In this document: positions 1-36,159 of the stretch, piece after piece | Position numbering within the stretch: the first letter of the stretch is position 1 | Layout of the letters: every line of letters begins with the position of its first letter | NCBI GenBank assembly: GCA_963763245.1 | Contig: CAVXNU010000011.1 | Location: 157,281 to 221,280 of the forward strand | Direction of reading: 5' to 3' | DNA from: an uncultured Bacillaceae bacterium | GTDB taxonomy: Bacteria > Pseudomonadota > Alphaproteobacteria > Rhodobacterales > Rhodobacteraceae | Length of the DNA stretch: 64,000 bases | The notes under the pieces: generated by a model | Databases searched by the model: none | The model's input: the letters and a program-made list of their open reading frames with translations, nothing else | What the model was told of the DNA's origin: nothing | Position numbers and translations under genes: made by a program

Positions 1-183
1 TGCCTGCGCACCAGCTCGATGCCGATCCCCAGCCGATCGAAGATGTCGTCCAGCGCCTGGTCGATCGCGAGCAGGTAATAGGCCACGTTCATGTGGCCGT
101 TGTAGTCGATCCATTCGGGCAGCACGCGCCGCGTCGGACGAGCGCAAGGGCCTGGCCTCGAAGGTCTCGGTGCTCGCGTCCAT
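1..183 (-). CDS. Thioesterase (HotDog/4HBT-like) family protein, runs off the window edge; apparent 1-nt frameshift near 135
   Basis: Manual translation of the minus strand gives VLPEWIDYNGHMNVAYY, the thioesterase motif; ATG at 183 is in a different frame. Confidence 0.75.
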   Translation of the reverse strand, partial: MDASTETFEARPLRSSDAARAARMDRLQRPHERGLLPARDRPGAGRHLRSAGDRHRAGAQA

Positions 184-26149: not shown

Positions 26150-27382
26150 TCATCGCTGCCTCGGGACGGAATGAGGGGGCGCACGGGCCAGCGTCGAGCG
26201 GATCAGGGCGAGGCCCCCGCAGGACGGACAGACGTCCGGGATGACCGGCGGCGACGGCAGGGCGGCTGCGTTGGCTGCGACGATGGGATCGGGGTCGTCA
26301 TCTTGATTGGAGCCGGCGTTGGCAAGCAGCCGGCGGCACAGGGCGAGCCGTGCCGCGCGATGGCCGTTGGCGAGGAAGCCGAAGTGGCGGATGCGGTGGA
26401 AGCCGGGCGGCAGGACGTGCAAGGAGGAACCGGCGCATGAACTCGCCTGCCTCCAGCGTCATGACCTTGCGGCGCCCCTCCTGGCGATAGTCCTTCCAGC
26501 GGAAGCTCACTTTCCCGTCGGCCATGCCGATCAGCCGGCTGTTGGCGATGGCGACGCGATGGGTGTAGCGGCCGAGATAGGCGAGCACCTGCTCTGGTCC
26601 GCCGAAGGGGCGCTTGGCGTAGACCACCCAGTCGATCCGGCGCAGCGCCGCGCAGTGGGCGGCGAAGGCGTCGGTCGCCGCGAGCGGCGCGAGGTCGCCG
26701 AAGAAACGCAGCCCGCCCTCGGCGAAGGCGGCGGCGAGGCGCTCGAGGAACAGCCGCCGGAACAGCTTGGCCAGCACCTTCACCGACAGGAAGAAGCCTG
26801 GCGGACAGGCGATCCAGCGCGTCCGGTCGGGCGAGAGGCCGCCGCCCGGCACGATGCAGTGGACGTGCGGGTGGTGCTGCATCGCCTGGCCCCAGCTGTG
26901 CAGCACCGCGACGCCGCCGATGGTGGCGCCGAGATGGCGCGGGTCGGCGGCGACGAGGCGCAGCGTCTCCGCGGCGGCGCGGAACAGGATGGCATAGACC
27001 ACGGCCGTTCGCCACGGTGCTCGGACCCGTGGCGCACTCGTGGCTCATCTGGAATGCGATCGCGCCGACCGGAGCCGGCAGGGTGAAGACAACGTGGAAG
27101 TAGGGCACGGGCAGCAGCTCGGCGCGGCGCGCGGCGACCCAGCGCCGCCCGCGCCTGGCCCTGGCACTTGGGGCAGTGGCGGTTGCGGCAGGAGTTGTAG
27201 GCGACAGCGATGTGGCCGCAGTCGGCGCAGCGCTGGACATGGCCGCCGAGCGCCGCCGTGCGGCAGGCTTCGATCGCGCCCATCACCCGGCGCTGCATGC
27301 GATCGAGGTGGTCGCCTCGCTCGGCGCGCCATGCGGGGCCGTAGCGGCGGAAGACGTCCGCCACCTCCAGACCGCCCGTCAT
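26150..27382 (-). pseudogene. IS91-family rolling-circle transposase disrupted by a 42-nt insert (27007-27048) and frameshifts
   Basis: CRTAALGG, YNSCRNRHCPKC, YFHVVFTLP, HUH motif HPHVHC, YLGRYTHRVAI, HRIRHFG. Confidence 0.9.
27007..27048 (-). other. 42-nt structured insertion, copy 1
   Basis: ATGAGCCACGAGTGCGCCACGGGTCCGAGCACCGTGGCGAAC interrupts AIAFQ|AVVYAILF. Confidence 0.85.
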
Positions 27383-27391
27383 GACAGAGCG

Positions 27392-28252
27392 TCAGGCGGG
27401 CGGCGTCACCTCCAGCCGCAGCCGATCGAGCGGGCTCTCCGTCCGGCGGATGACAACCTGCGAGACATGCGTGTAGCGGGCCGTCGTCGACAGGTGGGCG
27501 TGGCCGAGCAGCACCTGGATGACGCGGATGTCGACGCCGCTCTCCAGGAGATGGGTGGCGAAGCTGTGCCGCAGGACGTGGACGGTCACCTTCTTGTCGA
27601 TGCCGGCCGCGGCCCGCGCCGAGCGGCAGGCGGCGTGCAGCACGGTCGCCTCGATCGGCCGGCTCGCGTCGCGCCCCGGAAACAGCCAGTGTGCCGGGCG
27701 GGCGAGGCGCCAGTAGGTCCGCAGGATGCCGAGCAGCTGCTCGGAGAGCATCACATAGCGCTCCTTGCCGCCCTTGCCGCGCTCGATCCGGATCAGCATC
27801 CGGCCACTGTCGATGTCGCCGACGCGCAGCCCGATGACCTCCGAGACGCGCAATCCGGCCGCATAGGCGGTGGTCAGCGCCGCGCGCGCCTTCAGGCTCG
27901 GCACGGCCTCGAGAAAGCGCACCACCTCGTCGGCGCCGAGCACCACGGGAAGGCGGCGCGGCTCGCGGGCGTAGGCGATCCGTTCGGGAACCTCCGCCAA
28001 TCCGAGCGTCACGCCGTAGAAGAACCGGAGCGCCGCGACCGTCTGGTTCAGGCTCGCCCACGCCACGCCCTTCGAGGCGAGATGCACTTGGAATGTCCGG
28101 ACGTCCTCGAGCGTCAGGCGGTCCGGAGAGCGGCCAAAGAACCGGCTGAACTTCGAGACCGCGTGGACATAGGATCGCTGCGTCGCCGGCGAGAGGTTGC
28201 GGACGGTCATGTCCTCGAGCATGCGCCGGCGCAGAGGGCTGATCTCGGCCAT
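27392..28252 (-). CDS. Tyrosine recombinase/integrase, apparently intact
   Basis: YAAGLRVSE, GKGGKER, HVLRHSFATHLLE, LLGH, TARY (catalytic R-K-H-R-H-Y). Confidence 0.93.
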   Translation of the reverse strand: MAEISPLRRRMLEDMTVRNLSPATQRSYVHAVSKFSRFFGRSPDRLTLEDVRTFQVHLASKGVAWASLNQTVAALRFFYGVTLGLAEVPERIAYAREPRRLPVVLGADEVVRFLEAVPSLKARAALTTAYAAGLRVSEVIGLRVGDIDSGRMLIRIERGKGGKERYVMLSEQLLGILRTYWRLARPAHWLFPGRDASRPIEATVLHAACRSARAAAGIDKKVTVHVLRHSFATHLLESGVDIRVIQVLLGHAHLSTTARYTHVSQVVIRRTESPLDRLRLEVTPPA

Positions 28253-28985
28253 CGGAAATCTCCTGTCTGGAAGTGGGTTGCAGCAACCCAGAGCTTCCAA
28301 TCAGGAGCGCCGACCGCGAAGGGCCCCTACCGCGCAGCGGTTTCGTTCAATCCCCCTTCTCAAACACGCTCTGAGGGGATTCAAGCAGATCAGCTGAGTA
28401 TTATCTTTTCCCGCTTTTCCCGCATTTCTTTTTGTATCTGGTGTCCTCGCACCAATCTTTTCGCAGGGGTGGCGGTGGTCGCCACCCGTGAAACAGAGGC
28501 GAATACATAAATTCCATCATCACTATCCACTACAAGCTCAACGGCGCCCTTCACGGCGGTGCCGGCTGCAGGGCGCAGATCTGCTTTGGCCTCGATTTAC
28601 GTGCAGGCGAGGTAGATCAGCGCTGCCGAGCCGACGTCCGTTTCATCCCATCACCATGGCAACCAATCCGAAATTCAGGAGAGACGTCGATCGCCGCTCA
28701 AACGCGTCTGCCATGCGGTCTGGGAGGTCCTTCGGAAGCCGCACCAATACCCGCGTGCGATGGCCTGAAGCGCGGCGATCGGCGGCCGCTTGGGCATGAT
28801 CGGATCGTCCATATGGCGCACCCAGTGCGATGACACGGAGCACTCATGTTCCTTTTATGTTCTCATCTACCGAGGATGACACGCCGTTTCGCCGTTTAAA
28901 CCGTCCAGGCCACTCCCCATTGCGATGCACCGCCTTGTCGGTCATCGTCTTGTCAGCGCTGAGCCAGCATTCAGGAGGAGTGGCG

Positions 28986-29756
28986 ATGAACGCGATCCGC
29001 GAACGCGTTCTTGCTGGCAAGCAGGTTCTAGGCGCCATGATATTCGAGTGCTTCACGCCGGGTATTGCACGGCTGATGGAGCTGGCCGGCTGCGAGTATC
29101 TCATCTACGACATGGAGCATACGGGCATCGGGCTCGAGACGCTCCGCGTCCAGGCGGCCCACTGCCGGGGGCTTTCGGTTGTTCCCATGGCGCGCGTGCC
29201 GCGCTGCGAGTACCGCTTCATTGCCGGGGCGCTCGACATCGGCATGAGGGGCGTGATGGTGCCGATGGTCGAGTCGGCGGGCCAGGCCCGCGTGATCGCC
29301 GAGGCGTCGCGCTATCCGCCGGCGGGGCGACGTGGCGCCGCCTTCGGCTTCGCGCATGACGACTACGCGCCCGGGGATCCGGTCGACAAGATGCGCCGCG
29401 CCGATGCCGAGGTGCTGACCATCGCCCAGATCGAGACCGAGCGCGGGCTCGAGAACCTCGACGCCATCGCCGCGACCGAGGGCGTCGACGTGCTCTGGCT
29501 CGGCCATTTCGACATGACGAACTTCCTGGGCGTGCCGGGCCAGTTCCGCAGCGAGATCTATCTGGCCGCGGTCCGCAGCATCGTCGCGGCGGCGCGGCGC
29601 CACGGCAAGGGGCTGGGCTTCATGGCGGCGGACGCCAACTGGCTGCGCGAGTATCGCGCGCACGGCTTCAACATGCTCGCCGCCGGGACAGACCAGGCGA
29701 TGCTGGTGCAGGGCGTGCGCGGCGTGCTGGCGGGGGCCGAGGAGGACCGGGCATGA
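28986..29756 (+). CDS. HpcH/HpaI family aldolase
   Basis: DMEH, LDIG..GVMVPMV, RYPPAGRRG, AQIET; AGGAGG RBS. Confidence 0.9.
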   Translation: MNAIRERVLAGKQVLGAMIFECFTPGIARLMELAGCEYLIYDMEHTGIGLETLRVQAAHCRGLSVVPMARVPRCEYRFIAGALDIGMRGVMVPMVESAGQARVIAEASRYPPAGRRGAAFGFAHDDYAPGDPVDKMRRADAEVLTIAQIETERGLENLDAIAATEGVDVLWLGHFDMTNFLGVPGQFRSEIYLAAVRSIVAAARRHGKGLGFMAADANWLREYRAHGFNMLAAGTDQAMLVQGVRGVLAGAEEDRA

Positions 29757-30736
29757 GGTTCCGCGTCGGCACCACCCGCGACCTGATGACCGGCTCGGGC
29801 CGCCCCGCCTTCGACGAGCGCGCCTTGAACGAGCTCAATGCGAACCCGGAGATCGAATGGGAATGGATCCCCGAGAGCGTGCGCGAGATCACGCCCGAGA
29901 TCGCCGCGCGCTATGACGGGCTGCACCTGAATGCACCGAAGCTGACCGCGAGCAGCATCGCCCGGGACGATTGCCGGCTGAAGATCGTCGCGCGCAACGG
30001 GGTGGGCTTCGACTCGGTCGACCTGGCCGCCTGCGCGGCCAAGGGCATCCTCGTCACCAACACGCCGCTGGCGATCCGCCGTCCCGTGGCGGTCGCGGCG
30101 ATGACGCTGATCCTGGCGCTTGCGGGCCGGCTGTTCGTCAAGGATCGGATCGTCCGCGAAGGCCGCTGGGGCGAGCAGGTCGAGCACATGGGCGAGGGGC
30201 TGACGACCCGAACGCTCGGGCTCGTCGGCGGCGGTGGCATCGGGCAGGAGCTGATCCCGCTCGCGCGACCGTTCTTCGGCGAGGTAATCGTCGCCGACCC
30301 CCAGGTTCAAGGCGAGGTTTTCGAGAAGCTCGGCGCCCGCAAGGTGACGTTCGAGACGGTCCTCGAGGAATCGGACTACCTGGTCGTCGCCTGCCCGCTG
30401 AACGAGGAGACGCGCCACCTGATGGACGCCGGCGCCTTCGCCCGCATGAAGCGGGGCGCCACATTCGTCAATGTGGCGCGCGGACCGATCCACGACGAGG
30501 CGGCGCTCGTCGCGGCGCTGAACTCGGGCCAGCTGCAGGCAGCGGGCCTCGACGTCCACGAGGTCGAGCCATTGCCCGCCTCGAGCCCGCTGATAGGCAT
30601 GGACAATGTCATCCTGACGCCGCACGCGCTCTGCTGGACGGACGAGTGCTTCGAGGACATCGCGCGGACGGCGTTGCGCTCGATCGCCGATGTGTCGCTC
30701 GGACGGAGGCCAAAGCACGTGGTCGAGGCTCGCTGA
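29753..30736 (+). CDS. D-isomer-specific 2-hydroxyacid dehydrogenase
   Basis: RNGVGFDSVD, GLVGGGGIG, VNVARG, AAGLDV, TPH. Confidence 0.9.
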   Translation: MRFRVGTTRDLMTGSGRPAFDERALNELNANPEIEWEWIPESVREITPEIAARYDGLHLNAPKLTASSIARDDCRLKIVARNGVGFDSVDLAACAAKGILVTNTPLAIRRPVAVAAMTLILALAGRLFVKDRIVREGRWGEQVEHMGEGLTTRTLGLVGGGGIGQELIPLARPFFGEVIVADPQVQGEVFEKLGARKVTFETVLEESDYLVVACPLNEETRHLMDAGAFARMKRGATFVNVARGPIHDEAALVAALNSGQLQAAGLDVHEVEPLPASSPLIGMDNVILTPHALCWTDECFEDIARTALRSIADVSLGRRPKHVVEAR

Positions 30737-30839
30737 TGGCGTCCTCGTCACGACATCCGCTCGGCGCGCCGTCTTGGCCGCAGCGGATGCAAGAATGCGA
30801 AATGCCTCGGCCGCAGCCTGATCACCGATGGGAAACCAG

Positions 30840-31607
30840 ATGAGCGTCCAGCTATTCGACCTGAGCGGGAAGACCGCGCTCGTGACCGGCTCGTCGCGCG
30901 GCCTCGGCCGCGCCTTCGCCGAGGGGATGGCGGCTGCCGGAGCCCGGGTCGTCCTGAACGGCATCGACACTGGCCGGCTCGAAGCTGCCGCAGACGAGAT
31001 GCGCGCGGCCGGCCACGACGTCCTGACGGCCGCCTTCAACGTCACCGACGAGGCGGCGGTCGTCGCCGCGTTCGAGCGGCTCGACGCCGAGGGCATCGCC
31101 GTCGACATCCTCGTGAACAATGCCGGGATCCAGTTCCGCAAGCCGATGCTCGAACTGGCGACCAGCGACTGGCAGCGCGTGGTCGATACCAACCTGACCG
31201 CCGCCTTTGTCGCAGGCCGCGAGGCGGCGAAGCGCATGGTGCCGCGCGGACGGGGAAAGATCGTCAACATCGGTTCGCTGATGTCGGGCCTCGCCCGTGC
31301 GACGGTCGCGCCCTACACAGCCGCGAAGGGCGGGATCAAGATGCTGACCAAGTCGATGGCGGCGGAATGGGCCCAGCACGGTATCCAGGCGAACGCCATC
31401 GGTCCGGGCTATATGCTGACCGAGATGAACGAGGCGCTGATCTCGAACCCGGACTTCAACGCCTGGGTCACGGGCCGCACGCCCGCGGGCCGATGGGGCA
31501 GGCCGGACGAGCTGGTCGGCGCCGCGATCTTTCTCGCCTCGGCCGCCTCCGACTATGTCAACGGCCAGATCATCTATGTCGACGGCGGCATGAGCTCGGT
31601 GCTCTGA
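30840..31607 (+). CDS. SDR, gluconate 5-dehydrogenase (IdnO-like)
   Basis: TGSSRGLG, NNAGIQ, YTAAK, NAIGPGY, YVDGG. Confidence 0.88.
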   Translation: MSVQLFDLSGKTALVTGSSRGLGRAFAEGMAAAGARVVLNGIDTGRLEAAADEMRAAGHDVLTAAFNVTDEAAVVAAFERLDAEGIAVDILVNNAGIQFRKPMLELATSDWQRVVDTNLTAAFVAGREAAKRMVPRGRGKIVNIGSLMSGLARATVAPYTAAKGGIKMLTKSMAAEWAQHGIQANAIGPGYMLTEMNEALISNPDFNAWVTGRTPAGRWGRPDELVGAAIFLASAASDYVNGQIIYVDGGMSSVL

Positions 31608-31670
31608 TGCAGGCCATCGTCATTCATGCGCCTGAGGATCTCCGCCTCGACGAGCAGCCCGACGCCGGCC
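31607..31670 (+). pseudogene. N-terminal stub of an L-idonate 5-dehydrogenase-like gene
   Basis: TGATG-coupled MQAIVIHAPEDLRL, then similarity is lost. Confidence 0.6.
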
Positions 31671-31736
31671 GGGCAGCCTTTCTGGACTCCTTGCGCGTCC
31701 GATCGCAGAGTGGTTCCGAGGGAAATCGGAGCAGTC

Positions 31737-32525
31737 ATGAAACACGTGTCAGTTTCGCGAGATGGCCGCATTGCTGTCGTGCGCTTCGACCGCGGAAAGC
31801 CGGCAAACCCGCTCTCTTACGAGCTGATGCGGGAGCTGACGGAGACGGCGCGCAGCTTTGAGACCGACCCAGAGATTTCGGCGGTCGTGCTCACCGGCCG
31901 CTCCGACAACTTCACCATGGGCGTGGACCTGAAGGACGCCGAGACGCAGGCGCTGCCCGGGATGCCATTGGCCGAGCGTCGGCTGGCGCTGATGACGGGC
32001 GCCCGCATGTGCCGTGCCTGGGCGGAGGTGCAGGCGCTGGTGATCTCGGCGATCGAGGGCTGGTGCGTCGGAGGTGGTGTTGCGCTCAGCGTCGCGACCG
32101 ATCTGCGCGTGATGGGCCGGTCGGCGACCATGTATGTCCCCGAGATCGAGCGTGGCATGAACATGGGCTGGGGCTCGGTGCCGCGGATCGTCAATCTGGT
32201 CGGGCCGGCACGCGCCAAGCGCTTGGTCGTCCTGGCCGAGAAGGTCGAGGCCGAGAGGGCGGCGCACTGGGGCGTGGCAGACCAGGTGGCGCCGGATGGC
32301 GACGCGGTCGCGGCGGCGATGCACATGGCCGAGCGGGCGGCCTCGATGCCCCCTGTGGCGCTGCGCATGTGCAAGCAGGACATCGACGCCTATGCGAACG
32401 CGATGGCATGGACCGCCAGCCATGCCGATTTCGACCAGTATGCGCTCGCGCAGTCGGGGGCTGACTTCGCGGAGGGTGTGCAGGCATTCCTGGACAAGCG
32501 CCCGCCGCGCTACACCGGGGGCTGA
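31737..32525 (+). CDS. Enoyl-CoA hydratase/isomerase family protein
   Basis: FTMGVDL, AIEGWCVGGG, PEIERG, EGVQAFLDKRPP. Confidence 0.9.
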   Translation: MKHVSVSRDGRIAVVRFDRGKPANPLSYELMRELTETARSFETDPEISAVVLTGRSDNFTMGVDLKDAETQALPGMPLAERRLALMTGARMCRAWAEVQALVISAIEGWCVGGGVALSVATDLRVMGRSATMYVPEIERGMNMGWGSVPRIVNLVGPARAKRLVVLAEKVEAERAAHWGVADQVAPDGDAVAAAMHMAERAASMPPVALRMCKQDIDAYANAMAWTASHADFDQYALAQSGADFAEGVQAFLDKRPPRYTGG

Positions 32526-32619
32526 CGGCAAGCGCTCGAGTGCGCGCCCGGCTGGCGGATCATCTGCAGCCAAGACTGCCGCCGTTAGGCTGTGCTTCGG
32601 ATCGTTTGGAGGAGAAACC

Positions 32620-33711
32620 ATGGCGAAGATCGCACAGGTCCGCGTCGACCGCTTCACGCTGCCACTGCCGGAACCGATCGAAGCATATGCGGCGGGCGTG
32701 ATGGGCGCCTTCGACATGGTCGCGGTGCGGATCACCGATGCGGACGGTGCCGAAGGGGTTGGCTATACGGTCATGCACGAGGGCCAGGGCGGCTCGATCG
32801 CCGCGGTCGCGGATGGCCCGTTTCGCGAGGCCATCATGGGCGAGGATGCCGACCGGATAGAGTGGCTCTGGCGGCGCATGTATCGCCGGGTTCATTATGC
32901 CGGGCGCGGAGGGCCGGTCAGCTTCGCGCTCGCTGCTGTCGACGTCGCTCTTCATGATCTGCGCGGCAGACGCCTCGGCCAGCCTCTCTGGCGCCTGCTC
33001 GGCGGATATGATCCCAGGGTGCGGGCCTATGCCGGCAACATCGACCTCAACTTCCCGCTCGAGAAGCTGCTGGAAGGAGCGAGCCGAAGCGTCGAGCAGG
33101 GGTTCCGCTCGGTGAAGATGCGTCTTGGTCGCCCGACCCTCTCGGAAGACATCGCGCGGGTCGAGGCAATGCGCGCGCACCTCCCGCCGGAGATCGAGAT
33201 GATGGCCGACGCCAACGAGGCGTGGCGCATCGACGAGGCTGTCCGCGCCATGCAGAGGCTGCGCCCCTTCGATCTCATCTGGCTGGAAGAACCGATCGCG
33301 CCCGACGACCTCGACGGCTACGTCCATCTGCGGCGGCTGGGGCTGGTGCCGCTCGCCGCCGGCGAGAACCTGCACACCCTCCCCGAATTCACGGCACTGA
33401 TTGCGGCCGGTGGCGTCGATTTTCCCGAGCCGGACCTGACCACCTGCGGCGGCATCACGCCATTCATGAAGGTTGCCCGCCTGGCGGAGGCGCATGGGCT
33501 ACCGGTCATCAGCCACGGTGCGCACGACCTGCACGTGCACCTTCTCGCCGCTTGCCCGAATGCCGCCTATCTCGAGTGGCACGCCTTCGGGCTCGACAGT
33601 TTCATGGCCGAGCCGCTGACGGTGCGCGACGGGTATGCCTCTGCACCCGAGCGCCCCGGGCACGGCATTGTCTTCGATTGGGAGAGGCTCTCGGCCCACC
33701 GGTCCGGCTGA
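32620..33711 (+). CDS. Mandelate racemase/muconate lactonizing enzyme family (enolase superfamily)
   Basis: VKMR, MADAN, WLEEP, AAGEN, PGHGI; GGAGG RBS. Confidence 0.9.
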   Translation: MAKIAQVRVDRFTLPLPEPIEAYAAGVMGAFDMVAVRITDADGAEGVGYTVMHEGQGGSIAAVADGPFREAIMGEDADRIEWLWRRMYRRVHYAGRGGPVSFALAAVDVALHDLRGRRLGQPLWRLLGGYDPRVRAYAGNIDLNFPLEKLLEGASRSVEQGFRSVKMRLGRPTLSEDIARVEAMRAHLPPEIEMMADANEAWRIDEAVRAMQRLRPFDLIWLEEPIAPDDLDGYVHLRRLGLVPLAAGENLHTLPEFTALIAAGGVDFPEPDLTTCGGITPFMKVARLAEAHGLPVISHGAHDLHVHLLAACPNAAYLEWHAFGLDSFMAEPLTVRDGYASAPERPGHGIVFDWERLSAHRSG

Positions 33712-33909
33712 AACAGCGAGGCGAAGCTGGGCTAATACCGGCTTGCATAGGCGCCCAACTCGCGTGAGGGATTCCCAAGATCGCCGATCTCTGAGAACGG
33801 CGGTGAGAAAGTCGGCCACGGGAGCGGCGGGATGATCCCGCGGCGGGCGGCGTAAAAGTCGGCCACGATTGCCCTTTCTGACGGCAGGGAGGGCGGGGGC
33901 ATCTTCACC

Positions 33910-34700
33910 GTGGAGCTGTATCGGAAAGTTCGCCGGGCCTACTTCAGGCAGGGCATGAGCAAGCGGGCGATCGCGCGCCACTTCGGGATCTCGCGCGACA
34001 GCGTGGACAAGATGATCGTCTATGCAGTGCCGCCGGGCTACCGGAGGACGGCGCCGGTGAAGCGGCCGAAGCTGGATGGGTTCACCGAGATCATCGACGC
34101 GTGGCTGCGCGAGGACGCCGAGCGTCCTCGCAAGCAGCGTCACACCGCGAAGCGTGTCCTGGATCGGCTGCGGGAGGAGCACGGGTCCATCGGCGGCTAC
34201 ACGATCGTGAAGGCGTACCTGCGCGAGCATCAGCGGCGCGGCCGGGAGATGTTCGTGCCGCTGCACCACGCGCCCGGGCACGCGCAGGCGGACTTCGGCG
34301 AGGGTGAGCCATCAGCGCGCCATCGGTTCGAGCGCGATGGCGAACGGTGGTGATCGGCGGGATCGAGCAGACGGCGCACTTCTTCGCCTTCGACCTGCCG
34401 CACAGCGACGCCTGCTACGTCCGGGCGTATCCGGCGGCGACGGCCGAGGCGTGGGCCGACGGCCACGTCCACGCCTTCGCGTTCTTCGGGCGCGTGCCGC
34501 TGTCGGTGCTCTACGACAACGACCGTTGCCTGGTGGCGCGCATCCTGGCGGACGGGACGCGCAGGCACCTTGTCCTGTGCCAGGTCGAGAGGCGGCCACC
34601 GAGGCTCGACCTCGATGTCTATCCCTACCTGCCGCGCGCCAGGGTCGGGACCACGTCGGCATCGAGCTACATGTCTCTCATGGCCGGCGCCACCGCATGA
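33910..34700 (+). pseudogene. istA: IS21 transposase with a 42-nt insert and a large internal deletion at ~34563
   Basis: HTH, RKQRHTAKR, QADFGE, LYDND, then a jump from ADGTR to the C-terminal HLVLC..RRPPRLDL. Confidence 0.88.
34304..34345 (+). other. 42-nt structured insertion, copy 2
   Basis: GTGAGCCATCAGCGCGCCATCGGTTCGAGCGCGATGGCGAAC interrupts QADFGE|VVIGG. Confidence 0.85.
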
Positions 34701-34787
34701 GCGACGCGCCCAAGCTGCTGCTCGACCACCACCTCAAGACGCTGAAGCTGCCGACCTTCCTTCGGGAATACGCCAAGCTCGCCCGCC

Positions 34788-34837
34788 CGGCGGCATACGC
34801 CGCCAGGATCGTGATCTGCGCGCGTCCGCGCGCGGGG
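34788..34837. other. ~50-nt triple-hairpin insertion in istB
   Basis: CGGCGGCATACGCCGCC-AGGATCGTGATCT-GCGCGCGTCCGCGCGC-GGGG interrupts KLAR|AAEGQDHV. Confidence 0.75.
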
Positions 34838-35253
34838 CGCCGCCGAGGGGCAGGACCATGTGCGGTTCCTCGCCCGGCTGGTGGAGCTCGAGCTGATCGA
34901 CCGAGAGCGACGGATGATCGAGCGCCGGATCAAGGCCGCAAAGTTCCCGGCCACCAAGAGCCTCGACAGCTTCGACTTCAAGGCGATCCCCAGCCTCAAC
35001 AAGATGCAGGTGCTGGAGCTGGCCCGCTGCGAGTGGATCGAGCGGCGCGAGAACGTCATCGCCCTCGGCCCGAGCGGGACGGGCAAAACTCACACAGCCC
35101 TCGGGCTCGGCCTGGCCGCCTGCCAGAAGGGCCTCTCCGTCGGCTTCACCACCGCCGCCGGCCTCGTCCACGAATTGATGGAGGCCCGCGACGAACGCCG
35201 GCTCCTGCGCCTGCAGAAGCAGATGGCGAGCCAGACGCTGTTGATCATCGATG

Positions 35254-35295
35254 GTGAGGCGCGAGCGCGCCACCGGTTCGAGCGCCGCGCCGAAC
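35254..35295 (+). other. 42-nt structured insertion, copy 3
   Basis: GTGAGGCGCGAGCGCGCCACCGGTTCGAGCGCCGCGCCGAAC splits the Walker B region LIID|GFVP. Confidence 0.85.
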
Positions 35296-36159
35296 GGCTT
35301 CGTGCCCCTCTCCAAGACCGGCGCTGAGCTGCTGTTCGAGCTGATCAGCCAACGCTACGAGCGTGGCGCTACGCTGATCACCAGCAACCTGCCGTTCGAA
35401 GAATGGACCGAGGTCTTCGGCTCCGAGCGCCTGACCGGCGCATTGCTCGACCGGCTGACCCACCATGTCACCATTCTCGAGATGAACGGCGACAGCTATC
35501 GGCTCGCCCAGAGGCGCACGAGAAAAACCTCAGCCAACGCCTGACGCCAGGGTTGGCCTTTCAGGCCAACGCGCCTTGGCACACGCCAGCTGTTCGGGGA
35601 GCGCGCGTGCCAAGGCGCGCGCCATGTCCCAGCATCAGCTCCCGATCCCCGAGCTGGCAGACTTTTGCGCCGCCCATTGGCCTGCTTTTGCTCCGCCGTT
35701 GACATTAGGTCCGCTCAGGGTCACCCCGAGACCCACCACTGGCGTAGTCCGCATGTCCGGAGACGGAGAGAAACGGACATTCGCGGCAAGTGATCGATGC
35801 CGATTAGTATCGACGTTCTTTCTGGCGATGATCAGTGACCTCGCTGATCCGACCAGACCCCGTGATCGAAAATGGGTGGGATGTTTCCCCGAGAGATCAT
35901 GCGAACCCGGAATGTGTCCAACGCATGGGAGCAACGGCAATTCATGATCACAAATACCCACGACACTCGCGACAAATTCAGTGGTCACGGTTCCACAAGT
36001 TTCCGCGCGTTTCCCAGCGCGCATGCCGAGTTGAGCTCGCTGCGTGCCGAGGCGAGCCGGATCCGCTCGCTGCGGCTGGCGCGAGAAGATGTCATGAAGG
36101 CGATCGTTATGGCCGCCTTTCGCGGCTCGGAGCCCGCCATCGATGCGCGATCGGGCGGT

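Follow-up and report, generated by a model that had tools for sequence, protein, structure and literature searches.

Small structured hairpins inserted in the genes of alphaproteobacterial mobile elements: copies of a candidate non-autonomous micro-element

Results

The window (the whole 64-kb stretch of DNA analysed here) holds two insertion sequences (IS), an IS91-family transposase gene and a decayed IS21-family istA-istB element, with metabolic genes between them and three small hairpins inside them (Table 1). A Y2_Tnp match at C11:183698-184198 (window 26418-26918) lies in the former, and the families Mu-transpos_C_2 and IstB_IS21 were matched on relatives of the latter, which contains both plus-strand hairpins and, besides them, an unrelated insert and an internal deletion. 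An earlier note on this DNA had described the hairpins as ungapped 42-nt inserts with paired stems, lying in sense orientation in IS91 tnp, istA and istB and shifting their frames; positions, strands, pairing, orientation and frame effect were all borne out, and the ungapped length holds for the istA and istB copies, but the window IS91 copy lacks the initial G of GTGAG and consists of 41 element bases plus an A of the flank. Its sister copy (C9:60646-60687) retains GTGAG. The consensus pattern matched three times in the window, against 0.02 matches expected from shuffles.

Table 1. Features of the window, with positions counted from its first base
Feature	Position	Strand	Description
IS91-family transposase gene	26203..28286	-	two frames, split by the hairpin at 27007-27048; ORFs 27045-28286 and 26203-27240
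IS91 hairpin	27007..27048	-	in the IS91-family (Y2) transposase gene after YFHVVFTLP...AFQ; shifts frame; covariance model 66.5 bits
Decayed IS21-family element (istA-istB)	33791..35711	+	extent by blastn against the G083 copies
istA hairpin, 42 nt	34304..34345	+	directly 3' of the QADFGE codons; shifts frame; covariance model 69.4 bits
Junction of the ~500-nt istA deletion	34563..34571	+	~9 nt of filler, AGGCACCTT, matching neither side; blastn against L047
Unrelated 49-nt insert in istB	34788..34836	+	three mini-palindromes; shifts frame
istB hairpin, 42 nt	35254..35295	+	inside the Walker B LIID(EL)G codons; shifts frame; covariance model 69.2 bits

The unrelated insert in istB replaces 3 nt (metagenome contigs have AGT or AAT instead of 34788-34836) and was confined to this IS21 lineage in blastn searches. 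It is older than the istA hairpin, because the G083 copies share it, and at least the istA hairpin entered a lineage in which istB was already frameshifted. Together with the istA deletion and its filler, this replacement indicates that break-repair-type scars also occur in this DNA.

Seven comparisons of filled and empty alleles, those with metagenomes based on assembled contigs, showed that the hairpin replaces 4-5 target bases without duplication, in agreement with the earlier estimate of about 4-5 nt replaced and no target duplication. Empty sites were recovered for istA, istB, IS91 and an IS5 element. The istA hairpin replaces 4 nt (CGCT, CGGT or CGAT in G083 and in contigs of three metagenome runs), the istB hairpin AGCT plus one base (AGCTG or AGCTC by allele; empty alleles ..ATCGACGAGCTGGGCTTC..) and the IS91 hairpin ACAA, the empty paralog on C15 reading TTCCAGA-ACAA-GGCG. 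Furthermore, two hairpin sites in terminases of 85% identity are each the empty site of the other. In the IS genes the resulting net gain of +37 or +38 nt breaks the frame, as it does in IS91 tnp, istA and istB of the window. To our knowledge, no known transposition chemistry yields a constant target deletion of 4-5 nt.

The target preference reads RGR-N(4-5)-G, with its orientation fixed relative to the hairpin: R at -3, G at -2, R at -1 (94/99) and G at +1 (86/99), a pattern repeated at 73 independent metagenome sites (-1 R, 70/73; +1 G, 67/73). The flanks given previously as G and GG are therefore better described as R at -1 and G at +1, and the sense orientation of the three window copies does not extend to the family, in which either orientation relative to the gene was found. 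Independent hits recur at FIDE of IS630, IIDE of IstB, FLDE of terminase and YDNAV of IS3. Such hits at hhhhDE-type conserved motifs follow from the target preference, since GAG followed by a purine is what hhhhDE codons offer; the DNA motif suffices, and recognition of gene function is not needed.

Across the family the hairpin measures 39-45 nt. Its ends pair together (GTGAG...CGAAC, with tandem G.A/A.G), and a 6-bp stem and a 4-bp stem with a bulge between them lead to a 13-nt loop with GCCAYYGGTYCGA; the loop CGCCAYYGGTYCGAG and the tandem G.A/A.G near the base are conserved. DNA folding of the three window 42-mers gave -11.5 to -13.4 kcal/mol. Among 78 distinct sequences, pairing holds in 92.3% of stem cells, compared with 71% for shuffles and 16-36% with the partners slid, and 10 of 12 stem pairs show changes on both sides, which upholds the claim of a covarying structured family. 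At paired positions G.T and A.C mismatches are about equally frequent (45 versus 37), which gives no independent sign of folding limited to one strand. The loop GGTTCGA is T-loop-like and resembles the tRNA T-arm, and many copies also form an alternative hairpin with a 5-8-bp stem and a 7-nt TTCGAGC loop. Stems copied from the local target, or guiding the element to it, were rejected, the longest words shared by arms and flanks being like those of permuted pairs.

Clustering at >=95% core identity groups the 170 distinct sites into 108 clusters, the largest of which span 17, 14, 10, 8 and 8 separate sites spread over different genomes; these subfamilies are heritable copying lineages. Hairpin elements were also found nested inside the loops of others. 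An excision scar, another option raised before, is improbable, since it is the centre of the element that is conserved, whereas the stems on either side differ among copies. Rfam returned no match in the 64-kb window at gathering thresholds, and a permissive search with the hairpins returned only chance-level matches (<=16.5 bits). No description of the family was found in full-text literature searches; it is apparently an undescribed one, widespread in Alphaproteobacteria.

A covariance model built from six copies recovered seven strong copies in the 5.0-Mb assembly of the organism itself, all in or beside transposase DNA, and one weak copy 3' of a stop codon. Transposase-like DNA makes up at least 0.6% of this assembly (a lower bound) but contains 6 of the 7 strong copies. 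No copy was found in host genes, including the metabolic genes that separate the two IS elements, so that the earlier observation for the window extends to the whole assembly. (A generic scan of this genome for GAG...CGA-tagged hairpins gave 157 against 99 in a reversed-sequence control; it was too noisy at 70% G+C and was not used.) Matches occurred in 24 of 36 sampled genomes of the genus, 12 being without any, with 0-28 per genome.

Relatives, metagenomes and viral contigs supplied some of the 170 sites; others came from finished plasmids of alphaproteobacterial strains in culture (Ruegeria pomeroyi DSS-3, Paracoccus, Cereibacter and Azospirillum), which shows that the hairpins are not an assembly artefact. 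Almost all lie in transposase genes, which belong to at least 11 IS families, sometimes with several hairpins in one IS copy; a plasmid-type helicase gene is hit as well. Among the flanking frames (110 and 146 scanned), nearly all Pfam matches were transposase families, and just two copies, both of them weak, lay 3' of stop codons. The family is restricted almost wholly to mobile-element genes; it disrupts transposase genes in unrelated families, as proposed before, and is no ordinary intergenic REP or MITE. Ordinary REPs imported from a "source" taxon were considered too; intergenic high-copy contexts were absent from the metagenome scan (>120 contigs, 73 sites) and from the plasmid searches, both non-exhaustive.

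Frame-keeping hairpins occur inside phage terminase, portal and capsid genes and in GTA tail genes, and in phage genes only net lengths that are multiples of three were seen. The terminases L259 and L268 have gained 12 amino acids at two different sites, both inserts reading EPLSAIGPRTMA. A copy in IS3 orfB of the organism's own genome is in frame. In IS3-type elements of G015 and R. pomeroyi DSS-3 the hairpin follows an A_AAA_AAA or A_AAA_AAG slippery site at a distance of 9-18 nt, and a 43-nt hairpin at such a site leaves the IS in frame and is present in seven identical copies (G015). Interrupted IS copies still multiply, given that five identical IS5 copies each carry four hairpin inserts. 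Selection for IS knock-out as the sole cause of the IS bias was rejected on the grounds that one dead copy can hold several hairpins and that the istA hairpin is younger than the frameshifting istB insert.

A mobiliser co-occurring with the hairpins, as previously envisaged, did not emerge. G000 and 55 of 61 genus genomes, among them the hairpin-rich G027, G012, G015 and G008, lack PF01797 (Y1_Tnp/RAYT); RVT_1 is absent from the hairpin-richest G027, G012 and G008; and Y1_Tnp/RAYT, RVT_1 and Y2_Tnp are each missing from several of the hairpin-richest genomes. None of RAYT/Y1, reverse transcriptase or the IS91 Y2 transposase tracks hairpin presence across the 61 genomes, which is not proof of absence, and the copies in hairpin-rich genomes that lack them may be fossils brought by host elements. 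Identical host elements with and without a hairpin in one genome, a mark of recent movement, were not seen, no longer parent element with hairpin ends was seen at any locus, and no host disabling machinery was found.

Discussion

With a probability that we put at roughly 0.6, the window inserts represent a non-autonomous mobile DNA element, small and defined by its structure, that lives in the genes of other mobile elements and is moved by a dedicated cut-and-join reaction. An enzyme acting in trans would recognise the folded top strand, most probably as single-stranded DNA, and would join the entire hairpin, always in one orientation with respect to the weak target motif, removing the 4-5 bases between the two joints and leaving a small, rarely a large, target deletion; where the net length came to a multiple of three, the hairpin could be read through. 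The restriction to mobile elements may reflect where this reaction is possible, or where its products survive and spread, and does not show a host purpose. The best reading is accordingly a selfish micro-element riding mobile DNA, close to the "hyperparasitic mini-element" proposed before as one option, with a host role in disabling transposons as the less likely alternative. In a bolder version, which we offer tentatively, the hairpin is the substrate of an undescribed transaction that writes a folded element of about 42 nt into IS, phages and plasmids while excising 4-5 target bases, either as anti-mobile-element "insertional silencing" or as a hyperparasite with a new transposition chemistry acting on transposition or replication intermediates.

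A defence system of the host, or one carried by an element, that disables foreign or mobile DNA by inserting the hairpin into it, with broken IS as its fossils and only frame-keeping phages surviving to sampling, would account for the near-exclusive location in mobile-element genes beside untouched host genes, for the independent hits at functionally critical positions (FIDE, IIDE, FLDE and YDNAV) and for several hits per IS copy. We nevertheless judge it unlikely, and the "transposon-disabling system" of the earlier note found no support in that form: no host machinery was found, frame-keeping copies persist in phage, GTA and IS3 genes and leave the IS multiplying, the heavily interrupted IS5 still spreads, and hairpins entered an IS lineage that was already dead, its istB being frameshifted. 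Moreover, the family is patchy within the genus, as selfish DNA would be, the hot spots are accounted for by GAG plus purine, and the heritable subfamilies resemble replicating lineages, not the products of one host template. Distinctly unlikely, too, is the capture of hairpins as filler DNA during end-joining repair of double-strand breaks in mobile DNA, without an insertion reaction of their own. It would suit the combination of a small target deletion and an insertion with no duplication, the hairpin at a ~1.2-kb deletion junction in G083, the hairpin joined with 43 nt of istA flank to a truncated IS91 copy on C9, and the 49-nt palindromic insert (replacing 3 nt) and 500-nt deletion (9 nt of filler) in the same IS21 copy; yet the loss is a constant 4-5 nt with no scatter in size, the elements at the 170 sites are complete and exact at their ends, the flank motif goes with element orientation where random capture would give both, and there is no known source of free hairpin DNA.

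We see a slim chance that the hairpin moves via RNA, i.e., that a processed RNA with its T-loop-like GGTTCGA and tandem G.A is reverse-transcribed at a nick, as in some non-LTR retroelements. Target-primed reverse transcription can cause target-site deletion (R2 elements), and the exact ends, the likeness to the tRNA T-arm and the alternative TTCGAGC hairpin would fit; the absence of RVT_1 from the hairpin-richest genomes, the lack of a tail, primer-binding feature or Rfam match, and G.U being no more frequent than A.C at paired positions speak against it. It is scarcely credible that the hairpins belong natively to the IS as functional parts, either frameshift stimulators or intron-like or bypass elements removed in expression, even though those of IS3-type elements lie where a stimulatory structure is expected past the slippery site and the ends GTGAG...AC recall group II introns. 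Empty alleles encoding the conserved residues exist at every site tested, the same element sits in phage genes and in both orientations relative to the gene, and taking out the exact element, or one constant number of bases, does not put all three window genes back in frame: 41 or 44 nt would have to go from istA and from the intact IS91 insert on C9, against 40 or 43 nt from istB. A group II intron or derivative is likewise rejected at 42 nt, with no Rfam match, a 4-5-nt deficit after exact removal and many carriers lacking RVT_1.

Small palindromic repeats are already known. Rickettsia palindromic elements (RPE) are palindromic selfish DNA of Alphaproteobacteria in protein-coding genes, read through when in frame, traits that they share with our hairpins, down to in-frame insertion in an otherwise intact ORF and absence from homologues; by description, however, RPE measure 100-150 bp and occupy ordinary, including essential, host genes, whereas the hairpins measure about 42 nt and spare host genes. 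RPE are discussed in PMC3733652, and REP/REPIN repeats with their RAYT (TnpA-REP) tyrosine transposases, including GTAG-tagged REPs, in PMC3733652 and PMC3116915. Both REPs and our hairpins are GC-rich, 20-45 nt long and tagged by a short conserved foot (here R-Y-GAG...CGA-R-Y), both have subfamilies, compensatory stem changes and occasional in-frame genic copies, and both are presumably recognised as folded single strands. REPs are nevertheless high-copy and intergenic, with a RAYT gene flanked by REPs, whereas the hairpins number 0-28 per genome, lie almost all in mobile-element genes, mostly in carriers without Y1_Tnp, and have a long conserved loop and a loss of 4-5 target bases; with no RAYT gene in most of their genomes and no high-copy extragenic repeats, they do not belong to the REP/RAYT system.

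MITEs, too, are non-autonomous, with inverted repeats at their ends and an ability to nest within other elements, but they derive from a parent IS, with its terminal repeats and target duplication. The hairpins are far below the usual MITE size, show a 4-5-nt loss in place of duplication at empty sites and match no longer element with the same ends, which places them outside the MITEs. With integron attC sites and the end hairpins of IS200/IS605 they share conserved structure over varying sequence, extrahelical bases and internal mismatches, and one-strand-specific function; those systems delete no target bases, and Y1 transposase is absent here. An attC identity was rejected: the ends read GTGAGCC...GGCGAAC, the other strand gives GTTCGCC first, which is the wrong order for R'' (RYYYAAC)...R' (GTTRRRY), and the copies are solitary in genes, without cassette context. 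Mitochondrial GC clusters or hairpin elements are likewise very small GC-rich palindromes, sometimes genic and spread by an unknown mechanism, but belong to another compartment and sequence family, and they show target duplication.

The family stands outside described REP, MITE and RPE behaviour in its confinement to the genes of other mobile elements (11 or more IS families, plus several phage genes), its target-deletion signature and its lack of a RAYT partner. Many transposase "pseudogenes" of Alphaproteobacteria are accounted for by hairpin inserts, which can also serve to date IS lineages and follow their descent, and which reveal that terminase, portal and capsid proteins tolerate tiny structured insertions. 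Their presence in the tractable R. pomeroyi DSS-3, Cereibacter, Paracoccus and Azospirillum makes experiments possible. If the restriction reflects mechanism, the hairpin would mark a DNA state common to transposons and phages and imply an unknown enzyme; if it reflects host function, it would represent a new way to silence mobile DNA.

Structured insertions in the window and its own genome

The three 42-nt elements described in the earlier note were recovered at their exact places in the window, where their consensus pattern has three matches, the expectation from dinucleotide-preserving shuffles being 0.02. Each entire element folds as a single hairpin, in which the outermost G:C and U:A pairs are followed by tandem G.A/A.G and then, inward, by a 6-bp stem, a bulged A, a 4-bp stem and a 13-nt loop, with DNA folding energies of -11.5 to -13.4 kcal/mol. 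A covariance model made from six copies found seven strong copies (58-70 bits) in the own assembly (5.0 Mb, 70% G+C, 75% complete), of which the window is C11:157281-221280. The start of the C9 IS91 copy indicates that the IS91 hairpin of the window has lost one G. Transposase-like DNA, as detectable with 23 queries, makes up 0.6% of this assembly (a lower bound) and holds six of the seven; the seventh abuts an istA fragment. Metabolic genes separate the two IS elements of the window, and these genes are free of hairpins.

Hairpins were also seen at rearrangement junctions. On contig C9 the second IS91 copy, which is truncated, shares a 9-nt overlap with an adjoining 43-nt piece of istA upstream flank that carries an istA-type hairpin; this hairpin starts GTAAG and is cut at its 3' end at GCGA, after which host DNA (an adenylate cyclase-like gene) follows. 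In the related genome G083, a hairpin marks the junction of a large deletion, with mid-istA on one side and the end of istB on the other. Clearly non-mobile contexts were seen solely for the two weak members in the table, both a few tens of bases beyond the stop, in terminator position.

Hairpin insertions, their empty sites and associated scars (positions without a prefix are those of the window)
Feature	Position	Strand	Context and bases replaced
Strong copy 1, hairpin in IS91 tnp	27007-27048	-	Empty allele TTCCAGA-ACAA-GGCG in 84%-identical paralog on contig C15; 4 nt replaced
Strong copy 2, hairpin in istA	34304-34345	+	Empty alleles GAGG-CGCT-GGTGG (IS21 relative in G083) and CGGT, CGAT or CGCT (contigs of three metagenome runs); 4 nt replaced
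Strong copy 3, hairpin in istB	35254-35295	+	Empty allele ..GACGAGCTGGGC.. instead of 42 nt; AGCT and one base replaced
Deletion junction	34563-34571	+	~500-nt istA deletion relative to G083 copy; about 9 nt of filler, neither side matched
49-nt insert	34788-34836	+	In istB; three consecutive mini-palindromes; replaces AGT or AAT (3 nt)
Strong copy 4	C9		Second IS91 copy; starts GTGAG
Strong copy 5	C9:60200-61394 (locus L002)		43-nt istA fragment and hairpin, fused to the truncated IS91 of strong copy 4
Strong copies 6-7			Two IS3-family orfB copies; 41-nt hairpin read through in frame
Weak member, 29 bits	C8:96200-96241 (own genome)		Just past stop codon of PQQ-dehydrogenase-like gene
Weak member, 36.5 bits	L097:816-853		Past stop codon of DctP gene
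Ruegeria pomeroyi DSS-3 hairpin	megaplasmid 92015-92056 (L236)		After A_AAA_AAG site of IS3-type orfA
Rhodobacter sp. CZR27 IS5 element (L237/L238)	plasmid NZ_CP023549.1:159323-160713		83%-identical uninterrupted paralog delimits four inserts; 62-nt one replaces TGCT
Terminase, two sites			Two 85%-identical viral-contig terminases with reciprocal empty sites; 5 nt replaced by 41 nt, net +36

Insertion sites and target preference

The empty alleles demonstrate that the hairpins are true insertions that remove target bases; both terminase inserts read EPLSAIGPRTMA. Across 99 non-redundant sites the flanks carry R at -3, G at -2, R at -1 (94/99) and G at +1 (86/99), with little information at the remaining positions, and 73 independent metagenome sites gave the same picture. 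This motif is asymmetric and keeps a constant orientation relative to the hairpin. It had been proposed that the inserts lie at conserved protein motifs; such sites are indeed hit, but the DNA target motif explains them, because GAG followed by a purine is present in the codons of hhhhDE motifs. Among such sites, independent insertions struck IstB IIDE, IS630 FIDE (three times) and terminase FLDE, and likewise YDNAV in IS3 elements and NKAV in IS91 and IS256.

A heritable family under structural constraint

The covariance model matches 24 of 36 sampled genomes of the genus, with at most 28 matches each; outside the genus, few genomes of the class are matched. When 51 and 80 of the matches were aligned, the loop CGCCAYYGGTYCGAG proved conserved, the stems variable and the ends covarying (e.g., GTGAG..CGAAC, GCGAG..CGAGC, ATGAG..CGAAT, CTGAG..CGAAG). 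Among 78 distinct sequences, in an alignment itself fitted to the model, 92.3% of paired cells are complementary; the figure is 71% for shuffles and falls to 16-36% once the partners are slid. Change on both sides is seen in 10 of 12 pairs. Half of the copies have a second pairing option, in which the loop hexamer GCCAYY complements the 3' arm without a mismatch; the alternative hairpin so formed is T-arm-like and, for the IS91 copy, has the lowest energy of all folds.

With a core identity of at least 95% as the criterion, the 170 distinct sites make up 108 clusters, of which the largest span 17, 14, 10, 8 and 8 separate sites from different genomes; such recurrence of one core implies that the sequences are inherited by copying rather than remade at each site. 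No relation was found between hairpin stems and local flanks. Within a subfamily (38-nt core at least 95% identical) the outer two base pairs vary between copies and are always complementary (GT/AC, GC/GC, AT/AT, CT/AG, AC/GT, TC/GG; e.g., loci L017, L057 and L117), so that the ends change faster than the core, on both sides each time.

The family is not an assembly artefact, because finished plasmids of cultured strains carry it: besides R. pomeroyi, these include Paracoccus yeei plasmid pYEE1 and plasmids of Limimaricola, Leisingera, Cereibacter, Sagittula, Rhodobacter sp. CZR27 and Azospirillum brasilense. Its distribution is wider than the genus, and a metagenome scan gave more than 120 contigs, from many habitats, among the matches listed.

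Carrier genes and the fate of interrupted elements

For 110 sites from relatives and 73 metagenome sites, the Pfam matches of the best flanking frames were almost all to transposase families (rve, rve_3, DDE_Tnp_1 and relatives, Transposase_mut, DDE_3, IS66, IS110, Y2_Tnp, IS240, IS1595, IstB), and the hairpin occurs in either orientation relative to the gene. Viral contigs yielded 20 distinct sites, whose identified IS contexts are IS3, IS5, IS110, IS256 and IS630. Others of these sites hold in-frame copies in phage genes: two in the terminase large subunit, and further ones in a lambda-type portal gene, a capsid gene, a GTA TIM-barrel tail gene and an unnamed gene of 18 contigs. A further in-frame copy, 43 nt long, is in an AAA_30/UvrD-like helicase gene. 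The range of the family is therefore mobile-element genes, beyond IS elements alone; frame-breaking copies persist in IS elements, whereas phage genes show only frame-keeping ones. The 18-contig site, where the hairpin stands between ..CGGAACAAGG and GCGCTCGC.. in a gene without a Pfam match (L248 and 17 other IMG/VR contigs; also L095 in related genome G011), resembles a read-through copy that has become fixed in a prophage or GTA-like element of wide distribution.

Interrupted IS elements still spread. In the related genome G015, an IS3 element in seven copies bears a 43-nt hairpin (net +39, in frame) 9 nt past A_AAA_AAA, and the CZR27 IS5 element with its four inserts exists in five identical full copies. 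Of those inserts, two are canonical hairpins; a third, structured and 62 nt long (GTGAAGGGC...GCCCTG), bears the same signature; and the fourth, a hairpin of canonical type, has within its loop a nested element that shares the ends but has another core. These other cores point to a wider group defined by ends and insertion signature. In IS3-type elements the hairpin repeatedly stands just downstream of the orfA/orfB slippery site (L049/L050 in G015; L016:1023; L236); a stimulatory structure is expected at that position, and such copies may have been co-opted as frameshift stimulators.

The IS21 copy of the window records other scars. Its 49-nt istB insert, which shifts the frame, occurs only in this IS21 lineage (own genome and G083) and matched no repeat family among the sequences compared, and the ~500-nt istA deletion with filler is an end-joining-like scar. 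Since the 49-nt insert is shared base for base with G083 copies lacking the istA hairpin, that hairpin entered a lineage whose istB was already frameshifted.

Origin of the hairpins

Our preferred reading is that the hairpin is a selfish, non-autonomous element moved in trans by a structure-specific enzyme. In favour of this, the elements are complete with exact ends, form heritable subfamilies under structure constraint, have a target motif tied to their orientation, and nest inside the single-stranded loop of another hairpin. The order of events in IS21 bears on the rival defence function, in which, as the earlier note offered as one possibility, the insertions would disable transposons: with istB frameshifted before the istA hairpin arrived, selection for knocking out active IS elements is ruled out as the full cause of the IS bias. 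Capture of filler at breaks would have a local parallel in the istA scar, but the asymmetric flank motif in fixed orientation to the hairpin argues against random capture and for a dedicated reaction. A native IS function would suit the copies next to slippery sites; the empty alleles document insertion. An RNA intermediate is a further rival to the reading of a selfish element whose enzyme would act on DNA.

As to the enzyme, three candidates (Y1_Tnp/RAYT, RVT_1, Y2_Tnp) were considered; each is absent from several of the genomes richest in hairpins, which suggests that the mobiliser is of an undescribed kind, rare or a general host protein. Rfam gave no family match to the hairpins, even in a permissive search, and full-text literature searches found no description of them. 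The closest paper, on GTAG-/CGTC-tagged REPs (PMC3733652), deals with intragenic REPs in host genes and, unlike the present case, describes no family tied to mobile elements.

For the selfish element, the putative enzyme would act on the folded top strand and make the two joints of the insertion at a spacing of 4-5 nt in the target. Many of the copies now seen may be fossils that arrived with their host elements. Our preferred guess for the mobile-only targeting is that the reaction needs a state common to transposons and phages, candidates being free or single-stranded intermediates and repair-type synthesis, and that only copies on mobile DNA would travel between hosts.
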